Shown one piece after another: positions 995 to 24,701 of a DNA stretch of 64,000 nucleotides. A program made the translations under genes and the position numbers. The stretch spans positions 78,061 through 142,060 of the forward strand of contig CAYWDX010000002.1 of assembly GCA_964456235.1 (NCBI GenBank), read 5' to 3'. This DNA is from an uncultured Candidatus Saccharibacteria bacterium. GTDB lineage: Bacteria > Patescibacteriota > Minisyncoccia > UBA6257 > 2-01-FULL-56-20. How positions within the stretch are numbered: the first letter of the stretch is position 1; the number at the start of each line of letters is the position of its first letter. Under the pieces are notes generated by a model, which saw only the letters and a program-made list of their open reading frames with translations, was not told where the DNA came from and searched no databases.

Positions 995-1612
995 CTAATG
1001 TTTTGAAAAAGCCTCATCAACTCCCCTCCAATTAACCACATTCCACCAGGCGTCAATGTAATCGGGGCGTTTATTCTGGTATTTCAGATAATATGCGTGT
1101 TCCCAGACATCCAGGCCGAGGATCGGCGTCGCGCCCACCATGAGCGGGCTGTCCTGATTCGGCGTAGTCATGACGAGGATTTTTCCATCGCTATTGCGCG
1201 CAAGCCACGCCCAACCCGATCCGAAAACTCCCGCTGCCGCCTTCGTGAACGCATCTTTAAACCTCGCGAAGTCGCCGAATGTTGCCGCGATCGCATCGGC
1301 GATTTTTCCCGATGGCTCGCCGCCTCCCCCATCCCCCGCGCGAGCCATGATCGTCCAGAAAAAAGAATGGTTCAGATGGCCGCCGCCATGATTACGTACC
1401 GCCATCCGAATGTCTTCCGGAACCTTGGGGAGGTTCGCGAGAAGCGAAGCGAGCGGGGCCTCGGCAATTTCCGGATGCTTGTCGAGCGCCTCATTCAATT
1501 TCGTTACATAGGTTTGATGATGCTTCGTATGGTGAAGCTCCATCGTCTTCGCGTCGATGTACGGCTCGAGCGCGTCGTAGGCGTAAGGAAGTTGTGGGAG
1601 TTCGTATTTCAT
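995..1612 (-). CDS. sodA: Fe/Mn superoxide dismutase
   Basis: 205 aa; [36 protein letters not shown]... and C-terminal DVWEHAYYL are canonical Fe/Mn-SOD motifs. Confidence 0.92.
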
Positions 1613-3567: not shown

Positions 3568-4986
3568 TTATGAAGCCCTCCTCACAATACAAAACGGGGT
3601 CATCTCGTCAGATTGCCCAAGCGGATTATCCTTGAAAAGTTGGCCGATGAATTTTTCTGAAATTTTTCGCGTGGATTTGCCGAGCGAGAATACTCCGAGA
3701 TAATTTGCGTCGAGGATGACAACGTCGTGGCCGGTATGTTCTTTGATGCGCCGAGCGACCCCGTTCGGGTCCCCGGGGGCCAGCTTAGCCGAGTGCGCAT
3801 ACTTCAGTATAGTGAAGGACATCGGGCAGTCGATTGACTTAGCTTGCTTTCCGCAGAGCCGATAGAACATTCCGCCGATGCCGAGGGGGCGCGTCACGGC
3901 GGCTATCGCGGCGGCGGCGAAAACGCGGGGATACCCAACTTCTTCGATTAAGAGCTGCATAGCGAGCGATGTACCGTGGCCGAAGCCGTGGAATGCGCTT
4001 GTCCCGTAAAAGGTACCGACGTTGCGGGCGAGAAATCGCGCAAGGCGCGTCGGCTTAATATCGCCGAAATCGACGATCCGGTTCTGGGTGACGCAGAGTG
4101 CTTTTTCACTTATAAAAATAATATCGTCAGGCAAAAGGTAGGGGCTCACATACGCCTCGATAAGCGGCATGATGTCGGTGTCCTTTTCCGTTATGAGGCG
4201 CGTTTTCACCGGCAAGCGAAGGTAGGTGTCGTGATCGATATCGGTTTCGATTTTCTTGCCGGGATTAGCAGTAAACTTTCCCGAGGGTGGACGGGCGGGT
4301 GCTTCGAATTCTTCAAATGAAGGTTTTTCGCCGCGGAAAAGCGCGAACAAGGTTCCGAGGAATTGATAGATAGCCGTACCGTTTTCACCGAGCTTTGTGC
4401 GAGAGTTTAAGTTCTCCGTCGCTTCACTATAGAGAATATGCGCTTGGTCAATATCCGCCTCACTGAAAGCGGCTTCTACGGTCGGCGCACCCTCCGCCAC
4501 CATCCGCACAACAACCGAGCCGTCTCCCTGCGGCGTATAGAGAATTTCAATCCCGGTTTTTTTCTTCAGTTCTGTGTAGGTCTGCGTCTTTTCAACGAAA
4601 TGCCTTACGACGATCGGTATTGCTTTATGATGTTTAACTTCCGTTATGGTATTTTTACCATCCACGAATACGACGATGGGGTTCAGATCCTTAAGCTCGG
4701 AGGATTCGAGCCATACTTCGGCAAGAATAATTATCTTATCGCCCGGCTGGAAGTGATGCGCTGGCGGTCCATTGAGGCAGATGTCGCCATTGCCGCGCGG
4801 GCCGGGAATGACGTAGGTTTGCCAAAATACGCCATTGCGCAGATTAGTGATATTAACATACTGGAACGGCTTCATGCCGCTCGCCTCAATCAAAGCTTGG
4901 TCTATGGTTATGGAGCCGATGTAATTCAGATCGGCTTCGGTCACGGTGGCCCGATGTATTTTTGCCATGCAGGCGCGAATGAGCAT
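3568..4986 (-). CDS. Fusion protein: N-terminal aspartate 1-decarboxylase (PanD, pyruvoyl-dependent)-like domain plus ~350-aa C-terminal domain of uncertain function (possible CofE/F420-0:gamma-glutamyl-ligase-like fold)
   Basis: 472 aa; the N-terminal ~115 aa (MLIRACMAKIHRATVTEADLNYIGSITIDQALIEASGM...ICLNGPPAHHFQPGDKIIILAEV) aligns to PanD, including the Gly-Ser self-cleavage position (YIGSITID). The C-terminal part carries FISEKALCVTQNRIV (resembles the CofE VVSKAEGR region) and GVFSLGKST (GxxxxGKST). Confidence 0.65.
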   Translation of the reverse strand: MLIRACMAKIHRATVTEADLNYIGSITIDQALIEASGMKPFQYVNITNLRNGVFWQTYVIPGPRGNGDICLNGPPAHHFQPGDKIIILAEVWLESSELKDLNPIVVFVDGKNTITEVKHHKAIPIVVRHFVEKTQTYTELKKKTGIEILYTPQGDGSVVVRMVAEGAPTVEAAFSEADIDQAHILYSEATENLNSRTKLGENGTAIYQFLGTLFALFRGEKPSFEEFEAPARPPSGKFTANPGKKIETDIDHDTYLRLPVKTRLITEKDTDIMPLIEAYVSPYLLPDDIIFISEKALCVTQNRIVDFGDIKPTRLARFLARNVGTFYGTSAFHGFGHGTSLAMQLLIEEVGYPRVFAAAAIAAVTRPLGIGGMFYRLCGKQAKSIDCPMSFTILKYAHSAKLAPGDPNGVARRIKEHTGHDVVILDANYLGVFSLGKSTRKISEKFIGQLFKDNPLGQSDEMTPFCIVRRAS

Positions 4987-5012: not shown

Positions 5013-6668
5013 TCACTTCTGCAACGGTATGCTCACATGGAACGCACTCCCCTTCCCTTCGCCCGGAGATTCCGCCCAGATTTTCCCTCCGTGGGCCTCT
5101 GCAATTTTCCGCGCAATAAACAAACCGAGACCAGTACCGCGAATCTGCTTCTTGATGCGTTCGTCGCGCACAAATTCTTCAAAAAGATGCGGGATGAGCT
5201 CTGCCGGAACTCCCACGCCCGAATCAGCAACGCTTACGGTTGCCGTCCCGATCGTAGCGCCCGGCGCGGCGCTCGCTGCCCCCGGCGCGAGCTCTTCGGT
5301 GAGCGTTACGTGAACAAAACCGGTTGGCGTGTATTTGATCGCGTTGTCGGTCAGGTTCTGGATCACCTGCTTTAGTTTTTCCGCATCCGCATTGACCCAA
5401 ACCGAATGGTCCGGCGCCTGGAGCGTGAATTCGAGCTTCTTTGTTTCGGCGAGCGGCTTCAGCAGATCAACCATGCCGGCGACCATTGGCGTGAGGTCGG
5501 TTTTCGCAAATGAATATTCCATTTTACCTTCTTCCACTTTGCGCACGTCGAGGAGCGTGTTGATGAGGCCGATGAGATCGTCGGCCGAGCGGCCAATTTT
5601 TGCGAGCGACTCTTTTACCTTCGGCTCGACGGCGCCGTAGGATCCATCGATGATCAGCGAGGTGAACCCTTTTATCGCCGCAAGCGGTGAACGGATCTGG
5701 TGAGACGCGAGCGACAAGAGTTCGCTCTTGAAATGCGAGAGCTCGTCGAGCTGGGCGTTCTTTTCTTCGAGTTGCTTATCCAACCGCTCGAGCTCTTCGC
5801 GCTGTTCGACCTCTTTGCGGACGCTCTTGATCAAGAAAACGCTGAAAACCAACGTGAGGGCAAACACAGCGGCTCGAAATAGTGTGGTCGCCAGATTTCC
5901 TGAAAGGACGACTTCTGCGAGAGAAATAATAGAGAGGATGAAGGCGAGGATTTCGGTGGCGATCACCTTCACATTCAGCAAATGGTGACGCAGCATCGCA
6001 TACGAGGTAAGCGCGACGAACGGGAAAAGAAAGAGCGCGCCAAATTTTATATAGTGGGTGTCTTCAAAAAATGCGGGTAACACAAAATTAAAAATGAGGA
6101 TGAGGCCAACCATGAGCATGAAGCCAAGCAGGAAAACGCGCAGAGCTTTCTTTTCGTCGGCTTCAGCTTTGCTCACGCGCCGAAGCAAAAAGATGATGCC
6201 TCCGATATTCAAAAATCCGACGATCGCTGCAAAGAAAATAATTCCTGGCCCATTAGTAACGTGCGCAACAGGACCCTCGGTAGATCCGGCCACTTGAGAA
6301 AATATAAGTGGCGTGAGCGTGAGCGCAGCGGCAACCATGGTCAACGGAACGAGGAGGCGCGAAAAATAGGGCGAGAATTGGGCCTGCTCGCGCGGAAAAA
6401 TATATGAAAGGGCGAATGTGAAAAATGAAGCGAGAACGCCGAAGAACAGCACGAGGCGCAGCAACCAGAACGACGCCTCTGATGATGAAACTTGATAAGA
6501 AGAATAATTGACAATACCCCAGATGCTCGCGCTCACGGCAAGCGCGAGGAAAAAGCGACTCGAAATGCTTTTAGAATTGCTGAAAAAGGTGATGAAACCA
6601 AGGATCACCATTCCGGCGGTCGCAACTCCGACTGACAGCAAATCGAGGTTTCCAAAACTTATTCCCAT
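5013..6668 (-). CDS. Sensor histidine kinase with multi-TM N-terminal sensor domain
   Basis: 551 aa; about 7-8 predicted TM helices, coiled-coil linker, HisKA (SHQIRSPLAAIKGF), HATPase_c (NLTDNAIKYT...GTGLGLFIARKIAEAHGG). A Gly/Ala-rich low-complexity insert lies in the ATPase domain. Confidence 0.85.
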   Translation of the reverse strand: MGISFGNLDLLSVGVATAGMVILGFITFFSNSKSISSRFFLALAVSASIWGIVNYSSYQVSSSEASFWLLRLVLFFGVLASFFTFALSYIFPREQAQFSPYFSRLLVPLTMVAAALTLTPLIFSQVAGSTEGPVAHVTNGPGIIFFAAIVGFLNIGGIIFLLRRVSKAEADEKKALRVFLLGFMLMVGLILIFNFVLPAFFEDTHYIKFGALFLFPFVALTSYAMLRHHLLNVKVIATEILAFILSIISLAEVVLSGNLATTLFRAAVFALTLVFSVFLIKSVRKEVEQREELERLDKQLEEKNAQLDELSHFKSELLSLASHQIRSPLAAIKGFTSLIIDGSYGAVEPKVKESLAKIGRSADDLIGLINTLLDVRKVEEGKMEYSFAKTDLTPMVAGMVDLLKPLAETKKLEFTLQAPDHSVWVNADAEKLKQVIQNLTDNAIKYTPTGFVHVTLTEELAPGAASAAPGATIGTATVSVADSGVGVPAELIPHLFEEFVRDERIKKQIRGTGLGLFIARKIAEAHGGKIWAESPGEGKGSAFHVSIPLQK

Positions 6669-7705
6669 TGGATTTCTGGTGGTCGTTTATGCGAAACGGC
6701 GGTTGGCGGACCAGAGTGCCCGATGCGGAACGCAACGGCAAGAATCCCGTTCGTGGTTTTGAACGATTCGCGCAACCGATCATAGGCACGATCAATGATT
6801 TCTCGATCGAGCGCTGAAAAATGTGCTGCGTTTCCTAAGTTCGCTTGTTGCCATAAGAAAAGAACGCCGGTGATTAACTGAAATCCCAAGCCGAGTTTCG
6901 CCGCGCGCAACCAAATATTTTCCACCATCTTCCCCGCTTCAATAAAATCTTGGTCATTGTCTTTTACGGCGATCACGCCGATCAAGCCGGCCGATGAAAT
7001 CGTTTTCGCGTTTTCCTCATAAATTTTTTTAGGAATTTTTAATTTGGAAAGGAACTGCGCCGTCTTCCATTTTCTCAATAATTTGAAGATGGAAGATTTT
7101 GGCGGTTTCACCTCCATGGTTCGCACATATAAACCTTTGCGAGTCTTTTGATGCTCTTCTTCCCATAAAATTTCTTCGAAAAGGAGGCGGTGCAGCAGTT
7201 CATTTTGGAATGTAACGAGGATGTCGAACGCCAAATTTTCTGCCACCGGCTGCAGCTCCCCTTCAACGATCGAAAGCTCGCACGATGGGAATCGCTGAGC
7301 TTCTTCAAAGAGATATTTCTTGTCGTGCTCGCCGATCGGGGTTGTTTTAAAGGGGCGTCGGTTCGTGTGCCGATGAGAAATGGCCGAGGCCAAATTGTGA
7401 GTCACGACTTTTTCTGCCGGCCTCAATTCGAAGGAGGCAAAAACATTCCCGCCGGGAAACACGGTGACATGCGGCGCGAAACCTTGCTGGCGGGCCGCGA
7501 TTTCCATATTTTCAATAAGCGCTCCGTGAGCGACATAGGTGCCGCGATTTCGAAAATTCATCACCGCATGGTCGCGTTCGGGCAAACCAATCACATCAAT
7601 TTTGTTCCCGTTCCCGCGAACAGCAAACTTCCACGGCTGCGAATTGCTCCCCGACGGCGCCAGGTTCCCCGCCTCTATGATTGCCTGAATTTTTTCTTTT
7701 TGCAT
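6659..7705 (-). CDS. Tandem nitroreductase-family (FMN oxidoreductase-fold) protein
   Basis: 348 aa; nitroreductase signature APSGSNSQPWKF at the N-terminus and a second degenerate nitroreductase-like half. Overlaps the HK start by 10 nt. Confidence 0.75.
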   Translation of the reverse strand: MQKEKIQAIIEAGNLAPSGSNSQPWKFAVRGNGNKIDVIGLPERDHAVMNFRNRGTYVAHGALIENMEIAARQQGFAPHVTVFPGGNVFASFELRPAEKVVTHNLASAISHRHTNRRPFKTTPIGEHDKKYLFEEAQRFPSCELSIVEGELQPVAENLAFDILVTFQNELLHRLLFEEILWEEEHQKTRKGLYVRTMEVKPPKSSIFKLLRKWKTAQFLSKLKIPKKIYEENAKTISSAGLIGVIAVKDNDQDFIEAGKMVENIWLRAAKLGLGFQLITGVLFLWQQANLGNAAHFSALDREIIDRAYDRLRESFKTTNGILAVAFRIGHSGPPTAVSHKRPPEIQWE

Positions 7706-7712
7706 TAAGAAA

Positions 7713-8843
7713 CTATGCCTGCGGAGGCGGACCGCTCATCATTTTCATGAATCGCTCGAGTTCCCGTTTGCGGAGCTGCAATTCGTCCGCATAGTTTGGG
7801 TCAAGCACCGATTCAAGATTAATTTCAGATTTTCCTTCGGTTACCGGTTGGCCGAGCGCAATGCGTCGCACGAGATACGCAATGATCACGCCGGAAAGCG
7901 TTGCGGCCGAAGCGAGCTGTGGCCAGGAATAAAGCGTTTTCCCAACCTCTTGCACCGATTGGAGCACGCGCGAGGGCACGAGCGACACGTCAATAATTTT
8001 TGCCATCGCTTCAAACATTTTTGGAGGCGACCTCTTGATTTCGTCGATATCCATCCCCTCGAGTGCTCCGTAAAATGGCTTCAGATCAGGGCGGAGGTCA
8101 AAGCGCTCAACGTCCACAATCACACTATCGCCATTATCCGTCACCATCACGACCGGCATGTTCCGTTTCTTTGCCCCCTCGCGCATTTTCACCTTCATTG
8201 CAATATCGTCCAATTCCTCGACGAGCACATTTAAACCATTCAAGAACTCATCGATGTTCGCCGGCGTGATGCCGTCAAGATAGCAGTGGATCTCGGCATA
8301 CGGATTGAGTTGGTAAAGGTACCGCGCGATCACTTCAGTCTTATTGATGCCGATCTGCGTGAAGTCGAAACGCATTCGATTTAGATTGGTTGGCGAAACC
8401 GTGTCGGGATCCGCTAGTTTAATAACCCGAGCGCCGCCCATGAGGGCGAGCGTCACTGCGCCATGACTCCCCACGCTAAGCCCCGCCACACCAACCGCGC
8501 AGTTATAAAACTTCTCTTGCTCCTCTTTATTGATGATATTGCGATTGCGTGCAGTGCGAATTTCCTGGTGCAGCGCATCGTCGAGATAGTGGACCAGCGT
8601 TTCGTTCCAAGGGAAAAACACCCACTTGCCACAGATCTCAAGCGGCTGCCCGCCGGAATGCTCTTTAATAAAGGCCTCGAATTCTGCCTGGTACTGCTTA
8701 TTGAACCGGAAACGTGGGTTATGGATCAGAAAGACGTCCTCAAGTTGCTCACGATAGACATCAACAACAGCATGGGGAGGATGCGTCTTTTTAATCTCTT
8801 CAAGAGAAGTTTGCTTGGGGTCAAAAATGATGGGTTTTTCCAT
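7713..8843 (-). CDS. E1-like / ThiF-MoeB family adenylyltransferase-fold protein
   Basis: 376 aa; Rossmann/ATP motif NCAVGVAGLSVGSHGAVTLALMGGARVIKLADPDTVSPTNLNRMRF matches the ThiF/MoeB/E1 superfamily. Only 7 nt separate it from the nitroreductase gene. Confidence 0.75.
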   Translation of the reverse strand: MEKPIIFDPKQTSLEEIKKTHPPHAVVDVYREQLEDVFLIHNPRFRFNKQYQAEFEAFIKEHSGGQPLEICGKWVFFPWNETLVHYLDDALHQEIRTARNRNIINKEEQEKFYNCAVGVAGLSVGSHGAVTLALMGGARVIKLADPDTVSPTNLNRMRFDFTQIGINKTEVIARYLYQLNPYAEIHCYLDGITPANIDEFLNGLNVLVEELDDIAMKVKMREGAKKRNMPVVMVTDNGDSVIVDVERFDLRPDLKPFYGALEGMDIDEIKRSPPKMFEAMAKIIDVSLVPSRVLQSVQEVGKTLYSWPQLASAATLSGVIIAYLVRRIALGQPVTEGKSEINLESVLDPNYADELQLRKRELERFMKMMSGPPPQA

Positions 8844-8853
8844 GTGTTCATAA

Positions 8854-10353
8854 TTATAACTTTTTTACCCATTTATGCTTATTGCCAAGCATGAAGTACT
8901 TGGGGTGCTCATATTCCCAAAACGCGATCCTCACGAGGGGGCGGCCCCTCACCTGATCCGAAAGCTCTCGAAATTCCGAACTCTTCCGGCGCAAAGTTTC
9001 GACAATGTGGCGCTCGGCCATTTTTGCATACTCCCGCTTGAGCTTATGATTCCGCCTTAATTCCAAATTAATTTCCAAATATTGATTACGGCGAGTGTCA
9101 TATTTGGTGATCATCGTAAATTTGCTAGTCAGGAAGCGGGTTAAATTTTTATGAAAGAGTGCCGATTTCACAAATTCGGGGAAGATAAGGACGCCATAGA
9201 GTGTCGTCGCAAGGTTTTTCCGTTCATATACATAGACCAGGGGCAATTGATTGATGTAGGGCGTAATCCTCTCCCGCTTTGCGGCAACCCTAAGCGAAAT
9301 ACCGTTTGCAGAAAGCACCTCGTTGAAATCGTCGAAGCTCAACAAACCGCCGTGATCCCCTGATTGATAGCGCACGAGGGGCGCCGGACTCCGACCCGTC
9401 AGGAATAGTTCGCCCTCAACACACTCAAAGTTAACGAAATGTGGGATGTATTGCGCGAGCGTGGGGGTTTTTAATGTGCCACCAAAAAGGCCCTCAAAAA
9501 TTTTGCCGCTATCGTAAGCCAAGCGGCGTCCGAGAATCGTGAGAGGCGTTTCGACGGCAACAGCCCCGAGCTCCGAAGTCCCATAGGTATTCATCGTATC
9601 CGTAAAAATATTTTTGACCGCCTTTTTCTCGGCAAGGTAATCCCGAAATTCTTCGGTAAACGCCTCGCCAGTGAAGACAGCGCGCAAGTTCATCGCCCGG
9701 ACATTAATCCCATCCTCAATCGCATTGTCAATAATATCTTTCACGAATGGCGGGTAGCCGGCGATCACCACTTGCCGAAACCGCGGCGCCAGGTTTTTTA
9801 AAATTTTTGTCACCTCGATTTTGTTGAGGCCCGGAGAAATGACCGATATAGGAAGCTTGCGCATATTGCTCGCAAGATATGCTGCCGCATGAATTCCCAT
9901 TCCAGCCGACCAGACCCCCATGCCGAAGGTAATGATAAAGAGCGTGGGCCCCTCAATGGTTTTTTCGTTGTTACGGAAAAAATTTTCGATGATGACCTCC
10001 CTCACCAAATCGGACTCGTTGTCACGTTGGAAATAAGTCGCTTCACCGGTAGAACCCGATGTTGCGTGAATGGTTAATGGTTTTTTAATGCTACCATCCC
10101 AAAATAATGATTCATAAGGATAGGCGTGCAGGTAATGTTCTTTGCTCGTCGGTGGAACCAGTTCGAAATCGCGCAAGGTTTTTACCTTAGCAGGATTCAC
10201 CCTCGCCTTCTTCAAAAAATCTTTATACGCGGGCACACGCTGTGCTGCTGCATGGAACAGTCGAAGGGTTTCCCGTTCCCCCGTCTTAACCCAAAACGCG
10301 CTTTTCTTGCGCTTGATGTCGTGTATGGCGAGATCGGGATTCATATGTTCCAT
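8854..10353 (-). CDS. PaaK/CapK/F390-synthetase-like adenylate-forming ligase (ANL superfamily)
   Basis: 499 aa; TIHATSGSTGEATYF matches the PaaK A3/P-loop motif (SSGTTGKP), with an N-terminal region like PaaK (…YPYESLFWDGSIKKPLTIHATSG). Confidence 0.75.
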   Translation of the reverse strand: MEHMNPDLAIHDIKRKKSAFWVKTGERETLRLFHAAAQRVPAYKDFLKKARVNPAKVKTLRDFELVPPTSKEHYLHAYPYESLFWDGSIKKPLTIHATSGSTGEATYFQRDNESDLVREVIIENFFRNNEKTIEGPTLFIITFGMGVWSAGMGIHAAAYLASNMRKLPISVISPGLNKIEVTKILKNLAPRFRQVVIAGYPPFVKDIIDNAIEDGINVRAMNLRAVFTGEAFTEEFRDYLAEKKAVKNIFTDTMNTYGTSELGAVAVETPLTILGRRLAYDSGKIFEGLFGGTLKTPTLAQYIPHFVNFECVEGELFLTGRSPAPLVRYQSGDHGGLLSFDDFNEVLSANGISLRVAAKRERITPYINQLPLVYVYERKNLATTLYGVLIFPEFVKSALFHKNLTRFLTSKFTMITKYDTRRNQYLEINLELRRNHKLKREYAKMAERHIVETLRRKSSEFRELSDQVRGRPLVRIAFWEYEHPKYFMLGNKHKWVKKL

Positions 10354-10355
10354 AA

Positions 10356-10751
10356 TTACCGCGTGATCAAACTCTGAATTCCCGACACCAATTTTTCGAT
10401 TTCCGTTTTACTGAAAATGGGCACACCGCGCAGATTTCTTGTCGCGAGCGTTCGTTTCGCTGGATCCATTTCGCCCCACGGATCATGCAAACTCGTAAAA
10501 AAGGCTACTTTAATGCCGCGCGTTTTCGGATTTTCGTGGAGCGCGAGCGCCAAATCCCAACCAGATGGTCCCGGCGGCATGTAGATGTCACTCAAGATGA
10601 GATCGGGCTGCAACGACTCAGCTTTTTTGAGGGCGTCGAGGGTTCCATGCGCCATCGCGGTCTCAAAATTTGCCGTCTTCAACTTGGCGGACGCAATGTC
10701 TAAAAACATATCTTCGTCATCAACAAGGAGAACGAGCGGGATGCTCCTCAT
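10356..10751 (-). CDS. Response regulator, receiver domain only (CheY-like)
   Basis: Receiver motifs LVLLVDDED...LILSDIYMPPG...KVAFFTS. The ORF track starts at 10805, but an ATG at 10751 (MRSIPLVLLVDDED) sits immediately downstream of an extended -10, so the shorter start is proposed. Confidence 0.75.
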   Translation of the reverse strand: MRSIPLVLLVDDEDMFLDIASAKLKTANFETAMAHGTLDALKKAESLQPDLILSDIYMPPGPSGWDLALALHENPKTRGIKVAFFTSLHDPWGEMDPAKRTLATRNLRGVPIFSKTEIEKLVSGIQSLITR

Positions 10752-10767: not shown

Positions 10768-10796
10768 AAAAAGGGCCTGCGAATTTTCGCAGGCCC
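10765..10796 (-). terminator. Intrinsic terminator downstream of the AstE/AspA-like gene
   Basis: Stem GGGCCTGCG (10773-10781) / CGCAGGCCC (10788-10796), loop AATTTT; the minus strand follows with UUUUUUGUU. Confidence 0.55.
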
Positions 10797-10811
10797 GTCG
10801 AACAAACTTCT

Positions 10812-11759
10812 TTACAATCCGAGCACCTCCGGCGGATGGGCGAGGAACATGATCTCCTCGTTCCACCGGATCGGCTTCACGCCCGGCTGCGGCATGAGCG
10901 CGCAGCAGTCGGCGGGAGCCACGATCGGCCCTTGGCTGCCGTTTGCGATGACTTGGCCCTTGGTGATGAGCTCGAAATTCTGAATCGGCTTCACGAGCTC
11001 GTACCCGGCATCCGGATACCGCACGGCGTCAAAGACCCGGTAAACCCGCTGCTCCCGCTTCGGAGCGAGATGCTCCCGATCGATCACGCCCAGCTTTGCG
11101 AGGAAGGTTTCCGCGCACGTTACGGCGCGCGGGAACGTCTCGGAAGCCTCGTGCCCACCAGCTTCGATGCCGTATACCGCGGCGCGGCCGTCGCCATAGA
11201 AGTAACACGCCGGCTTTCCCGACTGGACTTTCTCGATCCCGGCGAGTACGGTCTCGATGGGGAACCGACGGACCATGCCAGTATCGCTCCGATCAAGCGC
11301 GACAACCATGGGCAGCGTATTCGAGAGCGTGCTGTGGATGTCGAGCGCGTAATCGAATCGCGCCCAAATCCGCTGCAGCTCATACGCCCGCCGGACTTCG
11401 TACCGCGCGTCATCTTTACTCAAGACGTCCGGCAGGCGATTCATGTTCAGATCCGTGAAACGAGCCTGGATCTTTCCCTGGTCGTCGCCCGCATCCAGCG
11501 CCTCGAAATAGCGGCGCATCGCTGCGGGGTTGTTGAGGACAAAGATCACCGTCCCCTTCTGAATGTTCCAGGCATGCCGGCGACGGAATTCGTTGTACAC
11601 CGCGAGTCCGGCCGGTTCGTTACCATGGGTCCCGACGGTGATTCCTACCACCGGACCGGGAGCACCAGAGTCGAGCATCCATACTCCCTGCGCACCGTCC
11701 CGACTTTCGCGCAAGGCGTCGAACGCTTCGCGAAGCATCACTTGGGTTTCACGGTCCAC
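10812..11759 (-). CDS. Succinylglutamate desuccinylase / aspartoacylase (AstE/AspA) family zinc hydrolase
   Basis: 315 aa; GITVGTHGNEPAGL (HGNE zinc-ligand motif of the AstE_AspA family). Confidence 0.8.
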   Translation of the reverse strand: MDRETQVMLREAFDALRESRDGAQGVWMLDSGAPGPVVGITVGTHGNEPAGLAVYNEFRRRHAWNIQKGTVIFVLNNPAAMRRYFEALDAGDDQGKIQARFTDLNMNRLPDVLSKDDARYEVRRAYELQRIWARFDYALDIHSTLSNTLPMVVALDRSDTGMVRRFPIETVLAGIEKVQSGKPACYFYGDGRAAVYGIEAGGHEASETFPRAVTCAETFLAKLGVIDREHLAPKREQRVYRVFDAVRYPDAGYELVKPIQNFELITKGQVIANGSQGPIVAPADCCALMPQPGVKPIRWNEEIMFLAHPPEVLGL

Positions 11760-11829
11760 GTGAACCTCCGTTGGTGTTGGATTTTACTAATGTAAAAGAA
11801 CGTTGGCATTATACCTCTATAATATTTAT

Positions 11830-11861
11830 TTGTCAAGTGTGTGACATATGCGTTGTATAAT
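11830..11861 (+). promoter_or_regulatory. Candidate promoter in the divergent region (TTGTCA ... TATAAT, 20-nt spacer) for the DsbA-like/DsbB pair
   Basis: ttgtca 11830-11835; tataat 11856-11861. The spacer is long, so this is weak. Confidence 0.3.
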
Positions 11862-17235: not shown

Positions 17236-18459
17236 TTATTGAGGCGTTGCGAGGTGCGCGAGCGAGCGAGCGCCACGCAATTTTTTGTGGTACTGGATCG
17301 CGAATCGGTGGGCTTCGTCACGCACGCGAACCAGCGTCGCCTTCGGCACACCACATGGTATTGCGCCGATGATGTCGTTTCGTTTGCGTTCCGAACCTTT
17401 CACAATGCCGAGGATCGGGATGTTCAAACTCGCCTGGCGCAGCACGCGACGAGCGGCGCTCACCTGGGCAACACCACCATCAACGAGGATGAGATCCGGC
17501 AGGCGCCAGTTATTTTTAAACCGCCGCGCGAGCATCTCGGTCAGCATGCCAACGTCGTTCGGCTGAAAAATAGTTTTGATTTTGAACTTGCGATAATCGC
17601 TCTTCTTCGGCGCACCGTCCTCAAAAACGACCATGGAACCGACCGCCGAAGTCCCGGAAATATTCGAGATGTCATATCCCTCGATGCGGTAGAGTTCGGC
17701 GTCTTTTGAACGCGGGGCAATAAACGGCGAGTCGGAGATAAGCGAGGTATCGCGGATGTGGCGCAGGGCAAAGAGCTGGTGGCGCAACGCAGTAGCCTTT
17801 TCGAAATCGAGTTCCCCGCTTGCCTCCCTCATTTCTTTTTCGAGCGATCGCAGCACAATTTTCTTTTTTCCGTCCAAAAATAATTTGAGGTGGTCTATAT
17901 TTTTACGGTACTCGCCCCGCGCTATCGCGCCAATGCACGTACCCGGGCAAAGCCCTAGTTCATAGTCAAAGCAGGGACGCGCGAATTTGCCGACACGATC
18001 TGATTCGTGCGTGCTCCAGGGGAAAATCCGGCGCAGCAGGCGCAACGCTTCTCGGGCGCTCGACGCCGAGGTGAATGGTCCCCAGCGATAGCCGCCATGC
18101 CCAGGATCTTTCCCGCGCGCGAGTTGCACGCGCGGAAATGTATCATTCGTTATCTCAATAGAGAGAAAACTTTTATCGTCCTTTTCGCGAACGTTGTAGG
18201 GCGGCAAGAATTTTTTGATGAGCTCGGCCTCGAGGATTAGGGCTTCGAGTGCCGTGTCGGTCGTTTGATGATCGATTTTTCTGATGCGCTGCACGAGCGC
18301 CTCGATGCGCACATCGTGGGGCCGTTCAAAATAGCTTGAAACGCGCCGGCGCAAATTCGCCGCCTTTCCTATATAAAGGATCCGCCCGTCATGATCCTGC
18401 ATCAAATACACCCCGGGCGAATCCGGCAGCGATTTGTAATTTAATTCTTTTTTAATCAT
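17236..18459 (-). CDS. uvrC: Excinuclease ABC subunit C (short form, 407 aa)
   Basis: GIY-YIG ([29 protein letters not shown]) and the C-terminal nuclease motif [12 protein letters not shown]. No terminal (HhH)2 region is apparent. 4-nt overlaps link it to uvrA and tsaC. Confidence 0.85.
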
Positions 18460-21005
18460 TGCTTCAGGGCTTTGCGGAGATAGTGGCCCGTGGCGCTCCC
18501 CGCCTTACGCGCAATATCTTCCGGCGTTCCTGTCGCGACGATCCGCCCGCCACGCTCGCCGCCTTCAGGCCCAAGATCGATCACCCAATCCGTGGTCTTA
18601 ATAACATCAAGGTTATGCTCGATAACGACCACCGTGTTGCCGCGGTCAACCAGGCGCTGCAAAACTTTGACCAGTTGATCCACGTCGGCAAAATGGAGGC
18701 CGGTCGTCGGCTCGTCGAGCAAGTAGAGCGTGCGACGCGTGTCGCGCTTCCCCAGCTCGGCGGAAAGTTTAATGCGCTGCGCCTCGCCGCCCGAGAGCGT
18801 CGTCGCCGACTGGCCAATTCGCAAATAACCAAGACCAACTTCTTCAAGAATGGCGAGTTTTTCATGGAGCCACGGAATGTCTTCAAAAAATTTCACGGCT
18901 TCTTCGACCGTCGTCTGCAAAACATCGTAAATGTTTTTACTCCGATATTCTACTTCGAGGGTTTCGCGATCAAAACGTTTCCCTTTACACACATCGCAGC
19001 TCACATAGACCGTCGGCAGGAAGTGCATCTCGATGGCGATCGTGCCATGGCCTTCGCAGTTCTCACAACGCCCGCCGGGCACGTTAAAGCTGAACCTTCC
19101 CGGCTTGTACCCGCGCACCCGGGCGTCTTCCGTCGCCGCAAAAAGATCGCGGATGTGCGTCCAGGCGCCAATATACGTCGCCGGGTTTGAACGCGGCGTG
19201 CGGCCGATCGCGGCTTGGTCAATATTGATGACGCGATTAATATATTCGAGTCCGAGAATCGATTTGACGCCGCCGGCTTTGAAATTGGCGTGGTTGAGCT
19301 TGTCGGCAATATTTTTATAGAGAACGTCGTAGACGAGGCTCGATTTGCCCGAACCAGAAACGCCGGTCACCGCGATGAAACGCCGGAGCGGAATGTCTAC
19401 GTCGACATCCTTAAGGTTGTTCGCGTGAGCCCCGCGGATTTTCAACGCATCTCCCTCGACGACACCACCCTTGCCGATTTTTACCTTGCGTCGCTCCGCG
19501 GGCACTTCGATAAACTTTTTCCCGCGCAGGTATTGGAGCGTCAGCGAAGTCCTTTTTGCATCTTTAAGAATTTCCGGAATCGGCCCTTGAGCAACGATCT
19601 GCCCGCCATGCACGCCCGCCGCCGGACCAATGTCAACGAGATAATCTGAAGCGCGGATCGTGTCTTCGTCGTGCTCAACCACGACGATCGTGTTGCCGAG
19701 GTCGCGCAAGCCTTGGAGCGTTTTGATGAGCTTTGCATTGTCGCGCTGGTGCAAACCAATCGTTGGTTCGTCCAAAATATAGAGCGTGCCGACGAGGCGC
19801 GATCCGATTTGGGATGCGAGCCGGATGCGCTGCGCCTCGCCGCCCGAAAGGGTGCCCGCCTTGCGGTCGAGCGTGAGGTATTCCAAGCCAACGTCAGCCA
19901 TGAATTTTAATCGGCTTTTAATCTCGCGGAGCGGGGCTTCGGCGACTTCTTCCTGTGACGAACTCTTAAATTTCATTTTCGAGAAAAAGGCCAGCGCGTC
20001 TTCAATGGAAAACGCGGTCACGTTCGTAATGTTTTTATTGTCGATGAGTACATTCAAACTTTCTTCGCGCAAACGTTTGCCACCGCAGACGGCGCAAATC
20101 TCTTCAGACCACAAATCTTTCGTGCCAAGTCCGTGGCATTCGGGACACGCACCGTACGGACTGTTGAATGAAAAAAGGCGCGGCTCGATTTCGGGAAACG
20201 AGAAGCCGTCGTGCGGGCAGGTGAATTTTGCAGAAAGGGAGATTTCTTTGTCGGTGATCACGGTCACGACATCGTTGCCGTATTTGAGGCCGGATTCGAT
20301 CGCTTCGGCGAGGCGCAAACGGTTGTCTTTATCCTTGAAATCCATACCCGCAGGGATCCGGTCTACCACGAGCTCGATCGTGTGCGTGTGGTAGCGCCCG
20401 AGCTCGACGCGTTCGCGCAATGAATGGTAGGTACCATCAATGCGGACTTCGGAAAAACCGGCGCCCAAAAAATCATAGAGCATCTGGTAATATTCGCCCT
20501 TGCGCCCGCGCACGACGGGCGCGAGGATCACCATATTCTTGCGCGGCCCCTTTGGCGCGTTGTTTTCTTTTGCAATATCAATCGCGACGTCAACAATTTC
20601 CTCGGTCGTCAGTTTTTTTATTTCACGCCCGCATTGGGGGCAGAACGGCTTGCCGGCGCGCGCGAAGAGCACGCGGAGATAATCATAAATTTCCGTGATG
20701 GTCGCGACCGTCGAGCGCGGATTCGATGAATGGCTTTTTTGGTCGATCGAAATGGCGGGCGAAAGCCCTTCGATATCATCAACGTCTGGTTTGTCGAGCC
20801 GCCCCAAAAACTGTCGCGCGTAGGCGGAGAGCGATTCGATGTAGCGGCGCTGCCCTTCTGCAAAAATAGTATCGAACGCCAAACTAGACTTGCCGGAACC
20901 AGAAAGGCCGGTGAAGACCACCATGGTGTCGCGCGGGATCGTGAGATCAACGTTTTTCAGGTTGTGCTCGCGGGCCCCTTTGATGATGATTTTGTCGTGT
21001 GCCAT
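18456..21005 (-). CDS. uvrA: Excinuclease ABC subunit A
   Basis: Two ABC ATPase modules ([20 protein letters not shown]), zinc-finger Cys pairs and signature LSGGEAQR x2. The start is placed at [19 protein letters not shown] (the ORF track starts 23 codons earlier). Confidence 0.9.
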
Positions 21006-21180
21006 GTTAATCGATAGATTTTTGGTGAGTCTTAATGAATTCTTAATAACAGCTCGCCCCCGAGCATGGCTCATAGGGGTAGACTAAACGATTCAGTTGT
21101 ATCCCAATTATAAAGATTTGATTAAAACTTTCAACCGCAAAATGATAACCGCGCATCGGCGCGAAATGACGACCGCGAAC

Positions 21181-22985: not shown

Positions 22986-24701
22986 CTAAACCGAATAGAT
23001 CTTCACCGCAACCGTCTTCCCCTTCACCTTGACCTCGCCCAGTTCACGCGCAGGAACCGGCTCATGCAATTTCTCCCTGGTCGCCTCGGAAATGATGATG
23101 TGTGACTTATATTCCTTATTGAGGCCCTCGAGGCGCGAAGCGGTGTTCACCGAATCGCCGATCACCGTATAGTCGAAGCGTTTTTCTGAACCCATATTGC
23201 CCACGATCGCATTTCCCGTGTGAATGCCGACGCCGATATCCACATGCGGGAATCCAGCAGCGTTCCATTTTTTTTGAAGGCGCCCGAGGCGCTGGATCAT
23301 CCCCTGTGCCGCGCGCACCGCGCGGTCGGCATGGTCCGGTTGCTCGAGGGGAGCGCCCCAAAAGGCCATGATCGCATCGCCAATGAATTTGTCGACGACG
23401 CCGTCGGTCGCTAAAATTTCTTCGGTCATTTCGGTGAAGTATTCATGCAAAAGTTTTGCCAGCAGCTCTGGATCGGTGCTCTCGGTGATGGTCGTAAACG
23501 AACGGATGTCAGAAAAAAGGATGCTTACTTCTTTTCGCTCTCCGCCGAGCGACAAGCTTTTGGGATTTTTGAGGATCATGTCAAGCACGGCCGGAGAAAA
23601 ATAATTTTGGACGGTGCGGCGGATGCGGCGCTTCTCCTGATCTGACGCATACCATTCCGTGATGCCATATTGCGTGAACGCCCCAGCGATGAGTATTTCG
23701 ATCCAAAAATAAGGAAGCAGCAGGAGCCGCTGGGCCATGAAATAGCTCGCAAGCGGTGGGGCAGCCAGGGCGACGATCGCGAGCGCAACGGCGCCCCGCA
23801 CACGCAGACGGGATAAAAGAAAGGCGACGAAGAGTGCAAAAAGGGCGCCCCCCAGATGCACGGCGATCGGTGGCAGCGCTTTGAGCGGCCGCTGCAATAA
23901 AATATTATCCAAAACGTTTGCGTGCCATTCAACGCCCGCCATTACTCCGCTGCCCATGGGCACGGCAACCACGTCATGGAGATCGCTCGCCGTTGCGCCA
24001 ATCAAAACAAAGGCATTTTCCAAACGCTCGCGCGGGATCGCGCCGCCCTTCGGAGAGCTGTCATTCAGAAAATCGCTTATTGAATAGGTCGGGAACGTTC
24101 CCGCGCCTCCCGCAAAATTGACTTCATTCGCGTCGCCTGCATCAATCGGCGCCGCATTCGCCATTGCCGCGAGTTGCGTGGCAAATGGCGTTAGCTGGCG
24201 GGCAACGGGGAACGGTCGTGCCGTGCCATCAGCTGCAAGTTTCACCGCGACGCTGCCCGTGCGCACATTCGCCGGCGACAAAAATTCTGCGAGCGGATAT
24301 ATAAAAGAGGAGCTTCCATCCGAATGCATGACGGGTTCTATCGGCAAAACAATCGGAAATTTTGCGCCGGCGATGGCGCTCGCGAGCACTGCATCATCGC
24401 GGGCATTGCTTTTATCGCTGAAGTTAATATCAACTCCTACGGCGCGCGGTGAAAACTGCGCAAGCCTACTCAAGACGTTCGCCTCAACGCTGCGAGGCCA
24501 CGGCCAGCGGCCGACCGCTGCAATACTTTTTGCGTCAATCGCGAGAATAACGATGTCGGGGTGAGGAGCGTGCGGGTGCGTGAAAGCGTCGGTACTTTGG
24601 AGGTCGAGTTTTGACACCCAAGAAAAATTCCCTACGGCGACAAGAACCCCGGCCACCAGCATAGTGAATGCAAATTTTCGGAAGGATGATGCAACAGACA
24701 C
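22986..24701 (-). CDS. CHASE2-sensor class III adenylate/guanylate cyclase
   Basis: 571 aa; N-terminal TM and periplasmic CHASE2-like domain, further TM helices, C-terminal cyclase domain (EVSILFSDIRSFTTITE...FIGDAIMAFWGAP). Confidence 0.8.
   Translation of the reverse strand: MSVASSFRKFAFTMLVAGVLVAVGNFSWVSKLDLQSTDAFTHPHAPHPDIVILAIDAKSIAAVGRWPWPRSVEANVLSRLAQFSPRAVGVDINFSDKSNARDDAVLASAIAGAKFPIVLPIEPVMHSDGSSSFIYPLAEFLSPANVRTGSVAVKLAADGTARPFPVARQLTPFATQLAAMANAAPIDAGDANEVNFAGGAGTFPTYSISDFLNDSSPKGGAIPRERLENAFVLIGATASDLHDVVAVPMGSGVMAGVEWHANVLDNILLQRPLKALPPIAVHLGGALFALFVAFLLSRLRVRGAVALAIVALAAPPLASYFMAQRLLLLPYFWIEILIAGAFTQYGITEWYASDQEKRRIRRTVQNYFSPAVLDMILKNPKSLSLGGERKEVSILFSDIRSFTTITESTDPELLAKLLHEYFTEMTEEILATDGVVDKFIGDAIMAFWGAPLEQPDHADRAVRAAQGMIQRLGRLQKKWNAAGFPHVDIGVGIHTGNAIVGNMGSEKRFDYTVIGDSVNTASRLEGLNKEYKSHIIISEATREKLHEPVPARELGEVKVKGKTVAVKIYSV

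Follow-up and report, generated by a model that had tools for sequence, protein, structure and literature searches.

ThiF-type cyclisation and flavin-dependent desaturation are coupled in the oxazolone synthetases TrzS, TyzB/TyzC, and OxzB. TrzS (Rv1355c) is a fusion of a ThiF cyclase and a flavin-dependent oxidase (FDO), which converts N-acyl-tryptophan to N-acyl tryptazolone; its substrate is supplied by the acyltransferase TrzA (Rv1356c) (Kleetz et al. 2025, PMC12856293). In vitro, ATP-dependent cyclisation takes place first and is followed by O2-dependent desaturation. Cyclisation is abolished in the D217A variant and desaturation is impaired in R540A; both R540 and Q651 matter in the oxidase domain, for which 2YMV is the closest solved structure (PMC12856293). 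The split pair TyzB (ThiF) and TyzC (FDO) of Mycobacterium tuberculosis catalyzes the same chemistry on Tyr/Phe (Grigg et al. 2023, PMC10404671). OxzB of Pseudoalteromonas rubra is fused, and forms an oxazolone from an N-acyl aromatic amino acid in an ATP-dependent manner (de Rond et al., bioRxiv 10.1101/2020.06.11.147165). Here, a related gene pair is described from a 64,000-nucleotide (nt) stretch of contig CAYWDX010000002.1 from an uncultured Candidatus Saccharibacteria bacterium; the whole stretch is referred to as the window. The pair consists of a ThiF-like gene and a tandem-nitroreductase gene, the product of the latter being called the oxidase below. With a probability that we put at roughly 0.6, the two proteins would be separately encoded halves of an oxazolone-synthetase-type ThiF-cyclase/FDO. 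They would form the core of an operon of receiver, ligase, ThiF, oxidase, and seven-transmembrane (7TM) kinase, making an N-acyl amino-acid-derived product that is sensed or regulated by the kinase.

The window pair shares with TrzS/TrzA the top profile (NF005901), the best structural homologue (2YMV), and the catalytic Asp (D217 in TrzS, D212 in the window). However, the window system is encoded by two genes, stays below the profile cut-off, lacks a TrzA-type acyltransferase, and does not conserve the oxidase arginines. It links a PaaK-like ligase and a 7TM kinase to the pair, and its host is a Patescibacterium, whereas TrzS belongs to a mycolic-acid actinobacterium. The TyzA/TyzB/TyzC system has the same split layout, with adjacent ThiF cyclase and FDO genes acting on a small N-acyl amino acid. 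Unlike the window cluster, it contains an acyl-coenzyme A (CoA)-dependent acyltransferase (TyzA) and no sensor kinase, and the window proteins score best on the TrzS-type profile, not on a TyzB/TyzC one. The pairing of ThiF with a nitroreductase domain is also found in OxzA/OxzB, a likeness taken from the publication. In contrast to the window pair, OxzB is fused and proteobacterial, and its partner N-acyltransferase uses fatty acyl-CoA. A literature search on oxazolone and Patescibacteria gave nothing relevant. No description was found of a patescibacterial system in which a PaaK-like ligase stands in for the acyltransferase, deaminating enzymes are encoded upstream, and a 7TM kinase is linked.

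The predicted cyclase and oxidase halves

The operon contains five genes, given here in their order of transcription:

10356..10751, minus strand: stand-alone response-regulator receiver, the operon's first gene (Pfam Response_reg, 4.9e-10)
8854..10353, minus strand: predicted PaaK-family adenylate-forming ligase, 499 amino acids (aa); no Pfam match, assigned by fold and motifs
7713..8843, minus strand: ThiF-like protein, 376 aa (Pfam ThiF, 9.9e-22)
6659..7705, minus strand: tandem nitroreductase (oxidase), 348 aa (Pfam Nitroreductase in two stretches, 1.8e-15)
5013..6668, minus strand: polytopic HisKA_7TM sensor histidine kinase, 551 aa (Pfam HisKA_7TM, HisKA, HATPase_c)

The ThiF and oxidase genes are co-oriented with 7 nt between them; the coordinates bear out the adjacency that an initial annotation of this DNA had pointed to. 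Both proteins have the same best NCBIfam match, NF005901 ('Rv1355c family'). Positions 26-345 of this profile are covered by ThiF (1e-85, 288.4 bits) and positions 374-713 by the oxidase (1.9e-47, 162 bits). The matches are collinear, and the gene order follows the domain order, with ThiF first. However, the window encodes two polypeptides, not one fused chain as in the NF005901 family. ThiF also has 38% sequence identity over 279 aa to a PGAP-annotated Rv1355c-family protein of a Mycolicibacterium plasmid. This alignment includes the catalytic Asp and a C-terminal TL(Y/S)(S/T)WPQL motif, and the window oxidase can be aligned over its full length to the C-terminal domain of the same protein (22% identity, E value 5e-12).

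Relatives of ThiF were searched among 1.84 billion cluster representatives, and 929 were found at E<=1e-30. Among the 150 best of these 929, forms of about 370 aa interleave with fused forms of about 730-780 aa. The top match among the 150 is P0361, a fused 732-aa ThiF-FDO protein that shares 52% identity with the window ThiF and, in its C-terminal half, 34% with the window oxidase (E value 7e-67). The cut-off of NF005901 is 476 bits. The two window proteins together reach about 450 bits (288.4 and 162), the relatives P0361 and P0363 score 443 and 452 bits, and P0370, with 41% identity to the window ThiF, clears the cut-off with 534 bits. These scores place the clade at the edge of the family; judged by them, the window pair is a split member at the edge of the Rv1355c/TrzS family.

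The family alignment showed that G121/G125, D145/D147, N153-L-N-R156, K168, and D212 of ThiF are invariant. These residues line up with the ATP-site motifs of TcdA, and D212 is the counterpart of the catalytic D217 of TrzS. The adenylation site thus appears intact, and ThiF is predicted to be an ATP-dependent cyclodehydratase. Its top-scoring solved structure is PDB 9egb/9egc, an unnamed 'THIF-type NAD/FAD binding fold domain-containing protein' of 265 aa; a literature search with the codes 9EGB/9EGC gave nothing relevant. Stand-alone ThiF proteins of the same clade (33% identity over residues 3-347) were also found on Streptomyces and Kitasatospora plasmids. In the sole such locus inspected (L085:6923-8697, Streptomyces sp. 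NBC_01426 plasmid), a GNAT-family gene overlaps the ThiF end, and there is no adjacent oxidase. These plasmid proteins may be a cyclase-only variant.

The oxidase carries the nitroreductase motif APSGSNSQPWKF at residues 16-27, in agreement with the signature read earlier from the sequence, and the tandem architecture proposed with it is backed by the AlphaFold2 model (pLDDT, predicted local distance difference test, 92). The top Foldseek match of the model is 2YMV (E value 5.4e-16, template-modelling (TM) scores 0.69/0.73), which is MsAcg, a monomeric, pseudo-dimeric Acg homologue. The next matches, to other nitroreductases, begin at 1e-5, ten orders weaker. The modelled structure confirmed the Acg-type tandem (pseudo-dimeric) fold. 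The Acg family profile NF047509 is also matched (4.5e-37, 128.2 bits), and its subfamily cut-off of 199 bits is not reached. The oxidase therefore has an Acg-type fold but falls on the ThiF-associated 'FDO-A' side, not on the Acg/DosR side. Two motifs (APSGxNxQPW and RxTNR) are invariant in the clade. By homology to the C-terminal domain of TrzS, the oxidase is predicted to be a C-alpha/C-beta desaturase. Mapped through the Mycolicibacterium homologue only, TrzS Q651 corresponds to Q276 of the window oxidase, and this position is Q or H across the clade.

The ligase and the conserved cassette

One genome per GTDB species was scanned (160 relatives), and 80 loci were kept. The counts below refer to 81 loci, the window and the 80 relatives, which are nearly all labelled Patescibacteria (three have other phylum labels); the count for each gene uses evaluable loci only. 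Named members of the ThiF clade are Parcubacteria-group Patescibacteria, such as Kaiser-, Wolfe-, Lloyd-, and Pacebacteria, and their annotation is only generic. A ligase homologue adjoins ThiF on the same strand in all 68 evaluable loci. The oxidase lies on the strand of ThiF in 74 of 77, and this recurrence means that their pairing is not due to chance. In 61 of 67 loci, the 7TM kinase follows downstream in the same orientation. Of the 62 complete cases, 60 keep the order ligase, ThiF, oxidase, kinase; the median gaps are 3-10 nt, and receiver genes occur within or beside the cassette in 15 loci. The cassette is thus kept across about 80 Patescibacteria species-level genomes. In one genome, the ThiF-oxidase pair is split by a 631-aa open reading frame (ORF) (L013:9025-10920), which by eye is DUF262/GmrSD-type nuclease-like.

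The ligase has only weak matches to PaaK profiles, with 59 bits against a cut-off of 646 for TIGR02155 and 64 against 700 for NF041878. Its AlphaFold2 model (pLDDT 85) has PaaK1 (2y27) as the top Foldseek match, covering both domains (E value 2.9e-20, TM 0.67/0.77); further matches include BT_0428, NatL2 (6tm4), 2-hydroxyisobutyryl-CoA ligase, and ClxA (9s45). The P-loop T98-SGSTGE and the C-terminal K492 are conserved. From the fold match and these conserved residues, the protein is therefore assigned as a divergent PaaK-family adenylate-forming enzyme. It shares the full-length two-domain fold, the P-loop, and the C-terminal Lys with PaaK1, NatL2, and ClxA; however, it is only about 17% identical, has about 70 extra residues, and reaches about one tenth of the equivalog cut-offs. 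A GH3-type amido synthetase was considered and rejected, since GH3 ranks just 50th in the fold search. NatL2 and ClxA build amide or ester bonds, not CoA thioesters, and by analogy direct amide formation by the window ligase is plausible. The ligase is predicted to activate a carboxylic acid and to supply the N-acyl amino-acid substrate.

Natural fusions were found among the relatives. P0424 combines the ligase with ThiF, and its ligase part is 38% identical to the window ligase over all 499 residues (E value 6e-123). In P0468, a ScyB-like amino-acid dehydrogenase is fused to the ligase (E value 1e-70) and ThiF. P0375 joins ThiF to an MIO aromatic amino-acid ammonia-lyase/aminomutase (TIGR03832, 547 bits, cut-off 501). 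On the contigs bearing these fusions, the remaining components and the HisKA_7TM kinase are still adjacent, although the gene orders differ; the kinase is also present in the fusion and gene-order variant loci L090, L092, and L094. In two of these (L090:3879-4976 and L092:2222-3310), a gene for a dihydroorotate-dehydrogenase-family (PF01180) flavoenzyme heads the cassette, which is either pyrD or a pathway enzyme.

In 19 loci, the gene immediately preceding the ligase encodes, in the same orientation, an ELFV-type amino-acid dehydrogenase, whose best NCBIfam match is the tryptophan dehydrogenase ScyB (311 bits, cut-off 600). A HisC-like class I/II aminotransferase takes this position in 16 other loci, and the two enzymes never occur together in one locus. 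Methyltransferase-like genes are found between the oxidase and the kinase in about 12 loci. A recurrent family of about 310 aa without Pfam or NCBIfam match, which has a GxGxG / LHHL pattern like that of S-adenosylmethionine-dependent methyltransferases, occupies the oxidase-kinase gap in 10-12 loci, among them L026 (10232-11146), L029, L038, L045, L051, L052, and L058; a standard class I methyltransferase is at a similar position in L070 and L077.

Taken as Rosetta-stone evidence, the fusions and accessory genes indicate a small-molecule, amino-acid-derived pathway. Three alternative enzymes that remove or move alpha-amino groups feed an acid-activating ligase. This points to a deaminated amino acid as the acyl donor in place of a fatty acyl-CoA: a 2-oxo acid or, with the lyase, an aryl-acrylic acid. 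The amino acid that is deaminated in the relatives is probably aromatic or hydrophobic.

A TrzA/OxzA-type acyltransferase hidden in the loci was also considered and rejected. A Nocardia TrzA homologue and a Streptomyces GNAT protein, used as queries, match nothing in the window or in the related loci, and no acyltransferase family is among the recurrent neighbours of the 81 loci. As a positive control, blastp of the Nocardia TrzA homologue against its Rhodococcus neighbour counterpart gave 9e-50; the gene that follows the homologue on the Mycolicibacterium plasmid does not encode a TrzA and could not serve as a control. The ligase therefore appears to replace the NAS-type N-acyltransferase.

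Operon limits and the sensor kinase

The gaps within the minus-strand run are -10, 7, 10, and 2 nt: the kinase gene begins 10 nt before the oxidase gene ends, and 2 nt separate the receiver from the ligase. The features that bound the operon are as follows:

10773..10796, minus strand: intrinsic-terminator-like hairpin, 10-bp stem with 8 G-C pairs and a T-run (consensus scan and sequence reading)
10812..11759, minus strand: AstE/AspA-like gene, upstream of the operon
3568..4986, minus strand: PanD and CofE/F420-ligase-like fusion (Asp_decarbox 6.5e-39; F420_ligase 2.6e-5, below cut-off)

The hairpin (10796..10773) sits directly past the stop of the AstE/AspA-like gene and inside the TTG-started receiver ORF. 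It marks the upstream limit of the operon and parts it from the AstE/AspA-like gene. Since an ORF starting at the TTG at 10805 would traverse the hairpin, whereas the ATG at 10751 follows it, the receiver probably starts at this ATG (MRSIPLV...). A TATAAT box lies about 8 nt ahead of the ATG, and the transcript could be near-leaderless. A perfect sigma-70 consensus (TTGACA, 17 nt, TATAAT) is found at 11808-11836 on the minus strand, upstream of the AstE/AspA-like gene.

Two neighbours were considered as members of the system. The AstE/AspA-like gene was attractive, as members of its family act as hydrolases on N-acyl amino acids; against it are the terminator that intervenes and the fact that no related locus conserves it as a neighbour, and it was rejected. 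The PanD-CofE-like gene starts 26 nt downstream of the kinase, and its homologue adjoins the cassette in none of the 80 related loci, so its membership is doubtful. Its 472-aa product contains a complete PanD part (TIGR00223, 118 bits, cut-off 106), and the C-terminal domain has a weak match, below the cut-off, to F420-0:gamma-glutamyl ligase (CofE-like). The rest of the window is housekeeping (UvrABC, SecA, a Mur ligase, a penicillin-binding protein, LeuRS, MetRS, and 4 tRNAs). It also encodes an AI-2E-family transporter (PF01594; 56186-57190, minus), a CHASE2-adenylate/guanylate cyclase beside a FecR-domain protein (22986-24701, minus), and a pilin-like (N_methyl) NHL-repeat protein (60828-62450, minus).

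Residues 1-280 of the kinase contain about 8 hydrophobic segments, with loops that do not exceed 38 aa. This topology argues for a sensor that is embedded in the membrane and fits a lipophilic ligand. The almost constant linkage of the kinase to the cassette, together with the receiver gene in the operon, suggests that the kinase senses the product or controls its synthesis. Autoinducer synthases are paired with polytopic receptor kinases in the cqsA-cqsS, luxM-luxN, and agrBDCA systems. The window cassette resembles these systems in that putative synthesis genes for a small lipophilic molecule are co-transcribed with a multi-pass kinase lacking a periplasmic domain and with a receiver. However, it has no homology to their synthases or receptors, and its possible signalling role comes from synteny alone. 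To our knowledge, no ligand has been described for any HisKA_7TM kinase.

The published authors likened acyl-oxazolones to acyl-homoserine lactones (PMC12856293; PMC10404671). The trzA/trzS-type loci of Nocardia farcinica (L089:2569-7341) and Rhodococcus (L088) are flanked by GGDEF or GGDEF-EAL genes, and such flanking of oxazolone genes has been reported for M. tuberculosis too. A link between oxazolone genes and signalling genes thus exists outside Patescibacteria too, in an unrelated phylum. A literature search on quorum sensing in Patescibacteria gave nothing relevant. A more far-reaching idea, which we consider tentative and rather unlikely, is that the cassette is a self-contained signal synthase-receptor module, widespread in bacteria of the Candidate Phyla Radiation (CPR). 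The three enzymes would then assemble two amino-acid-derived units, with no need for acyl-CoA, into a reactive signal (an azlactone or a dehydro-amino acid), and the 7TM kinase would be its receptor. If true, ultra-small episymbiotic bacteria would have a previously unrecognised chemistry for sensing a quorum or a host, and HisKA_7TM kinases would gain their first ligand class.

Proposed pathway, rival explanations and significance

A pathway of four steps can be proposed from homology, fusions, and synteny. The PaaK-like ligase would adenylate a carboxylic acid and couple it to the amino group of an amino acid, either directly or through CoA, to form an N-acyl amino acid; in the relatives, the acid probably arises from amino-acid deamination by the adjacent dehydrogenase, aminotransferase, or ammonia-lyase. 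ThiF would then adenylate the free alpha-carboxylate, and the amide oxygen would close the 5(4H)-oxazolone (azlactone) ring. The oxidase, using flavin mononucleotide (FMN), would desaturate the C-alpha/C-beta bond to an alkylidene- or arylidene-oxazolone, which after ring opening would yield a dehydro-amino-acid derivative. Finally, the membrane-embedded kinase and the receiver may sense the lipophilic product or control its synthesis.

Several points weigh against this oxazolone pathway. The combined score of about 450 bits falls short of the family cut-off, and tblastn with the Nocardia TrzA homologue gave no NAS-type acyltransferase (best E values 0.48 for the window and 0.57 for the related loci). 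Where the actinobacterial oxidase motifs DRxRF and ELRW have arginines, this clade has hydrophobic residues. One of these arginines is probably TrzS R540, as mapped through the Mycolicibacterium homologue. The substrate pocket, and possibly the product, would therefore differ from those of TrzS. The window cassette has no deaminating enzyme adjacent to it, and no dehydrogenase, aminotransferase, or lyase accessory gene nearby. The ligase could be a plain CoA ligase. The linkage of the kinase is evidence of co-regulation, not of ligand identity. TrzS and TyzC need O2, and many Patescibacteria live in anoxic water, although the window ORF 995..1612 reads by eye as an Fe/Mn superoxide dismutase. 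Finally, no member of the clade has a known product, substrate, or activity.

The first rival explanation is a small molecule with another ring. Two amino-acid-derived units would be linked by the ligase, an amine or enol would attack the carboxylate activated by ThiF to give, for example, a diketopiperazine, pyrazinone, or tetramate-like ring, and the oxidase would dehydrogenate it. The absence of the NAS acyltransferase and the non-conserved pocket arginines are consistent with this explanation, as are the enzymes upstream that form 2-oxo acids, since the acyl unit may bear a reactive keto group. The accessory methyltransferases and hydrolases also differ between loci, and there is a precedent in AlbA, a nitroreductase-fold cyclodipeptide oxidase that desaturates cyclodipeptides. 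However, the nearest characterised homologues all yield oxazolones, the known ThiF cyclisations of small substrates, including that of TcdA on N6-threonylcarbamoyladenosine (t6A), use an amide or carbamoyl oxygen, and the sequences carry nothing specific to another nucleophile. This explanation is considered unlikely.

In the second, ThiF would act on a macromolecule, such as the C-terminus of a protein or peptide, a tRNA nucleoside (for example t6A), or a cell-wall precursor, and the oxidase and ligase would tailor the polymer. The best solved-structure sequence matches of ThiF do include the tRNA t6A dehydratase TcdA and E1 enzymes, PADLOC gave weak E1-E2 matches to the ThiF domain, and OxzB is the sole ThiF-like enzyme known to act on a small molecule according to a 2025 review. 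Yet the TcdA equivalog score is only 45 bits against a cut-off of 304. The operon, with gaps of no more than 10 nt, has no small GG-ending (ubiquitin-like, ThiS/MoaD-type) partner or precursor-peptide gene. Conjugation partners such as E2 or JAB are missing too, and the neighbours in the 81 loci include no recurrent family of small ORFs. The fusions are to small-molecule enzymes (amino-acid dehydrogenase, PaaK-like ligase, and ammonia-lyase). An anti-phage E1-E2 system was likewise rejected, since PADLOC found nothing for the ligase, oxidase, or kinase. Action on a macromolecule is judged quite improbable.

The initial annotation had likened the pair to the SagC/SagB proteins of thiazole/oxazole-modified microcin (TOMM) maturation. 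In such a system, an E1-like 'C' protein and a SagB-type azoline dehydrogenase would act on a ribosomal peptide, with YcaO absent or distant. The window shares with the TOMM machinery (SagB, SagC, and the YcaO protein SagD) only adjacent, co-transcribed genes of the E1-like and nitroreductase superfamilies, and the SGSNSQPW motif is generic to the latter. SagB-type, ocin-ThiF-like, and cyclodehydratase profiles are listed for neither protein at E<=0.01, and for the nitroreductase not even at E<=10. YcaO is absent from the 28 scanned window proteins (8 neighbours, 16 ORFs >=330 aa, and 4 smaller; 18456..21074, which was not scanned, reads as UvrA) and from the recurrent neighbours of the 81 loci, and gaps of -10 to +10 nt leave no room for a precursor peptide inside the operon. 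The earlier observation that YcaO and a precursor ORF are missing is therefore upheld. TOMM 'C' proteins are degenerate at the adenylation residues, whereas the window ThiF has kept all of these and is predicted to be adenylation-competent; the oxidase is of the Acg-type, monomeric tandem fold. Given what is known of the Rv1355c/TrzS family, the adjacency of ThiF and oxidase is therefore a signature of oxazolone synthetases and not of TOMM, and a TOMM-like system is highly improbable. The other option raised initially, a different chemistry such as dehydrogenation of an adenylated intermediate, was essentially right, as TrzS, OxzB, and TyzB/TyzC couple ThiF cyclisation to flavin desaturation. 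The system is not partnerless either, since the PaaK-like ligase and the 7TM kinase are its partners.

The last explanation, that an ordinary MoeB/ThiF sulfur-carrier adenylyltransferase stands beside an unrelated NfsA/NfsB-type nitroreductase, agrees with the public annotation of the relatives ('molybdopterin/thiamine biosynthesis adenylyltransferase' and 'nitroreductase') and is scarcely credible, given the conserved four-gene synteny, the gene fusions, and scores far under the equivalog cut-offs (ThiF/MoeB profiles: 78.4/159 for ThiF, 66.9/152, 51.4/275, and 38/266 bits for MoeB; NfsA/NfsB profiles: 15.5/227 for NfsB and 14.7/183, limited to the N-terminal 30 residues). The initial annotation had named these ordinary identities as the outcome that would speak against its reading, and they did not turn up. 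ThiF has Cys only at 71, 115, and 187 and thus no CxxC zinc site, and the 348-aa tandem oxidase differs from the homodimeric NfsA/NfsB enzymes of about 220-240 aa.

In summary, oxazolone synthetases were found between 2021 and 2025 in proteobacteria and mycolic-acid actinobacteria, and the candidate described here would extend them to Patescibacteria, which have minimal biosynthetic capacity. An adenylating ligase fed by amino-acid deamination appears to provide a substrate route different from that of the acyl-CoA N-acyltransferases. The misleading labels 'molybdopterin/thiamine adenylyltransferase' and 'phenylacetate-CoA ligase' can be corrected for these proteins. The genetic tie to a sensor kinase makes a signalling purpose of oxazolones testable, and the predicted products would be candidate communication molecules for the largely uncultured CPR bacteria.

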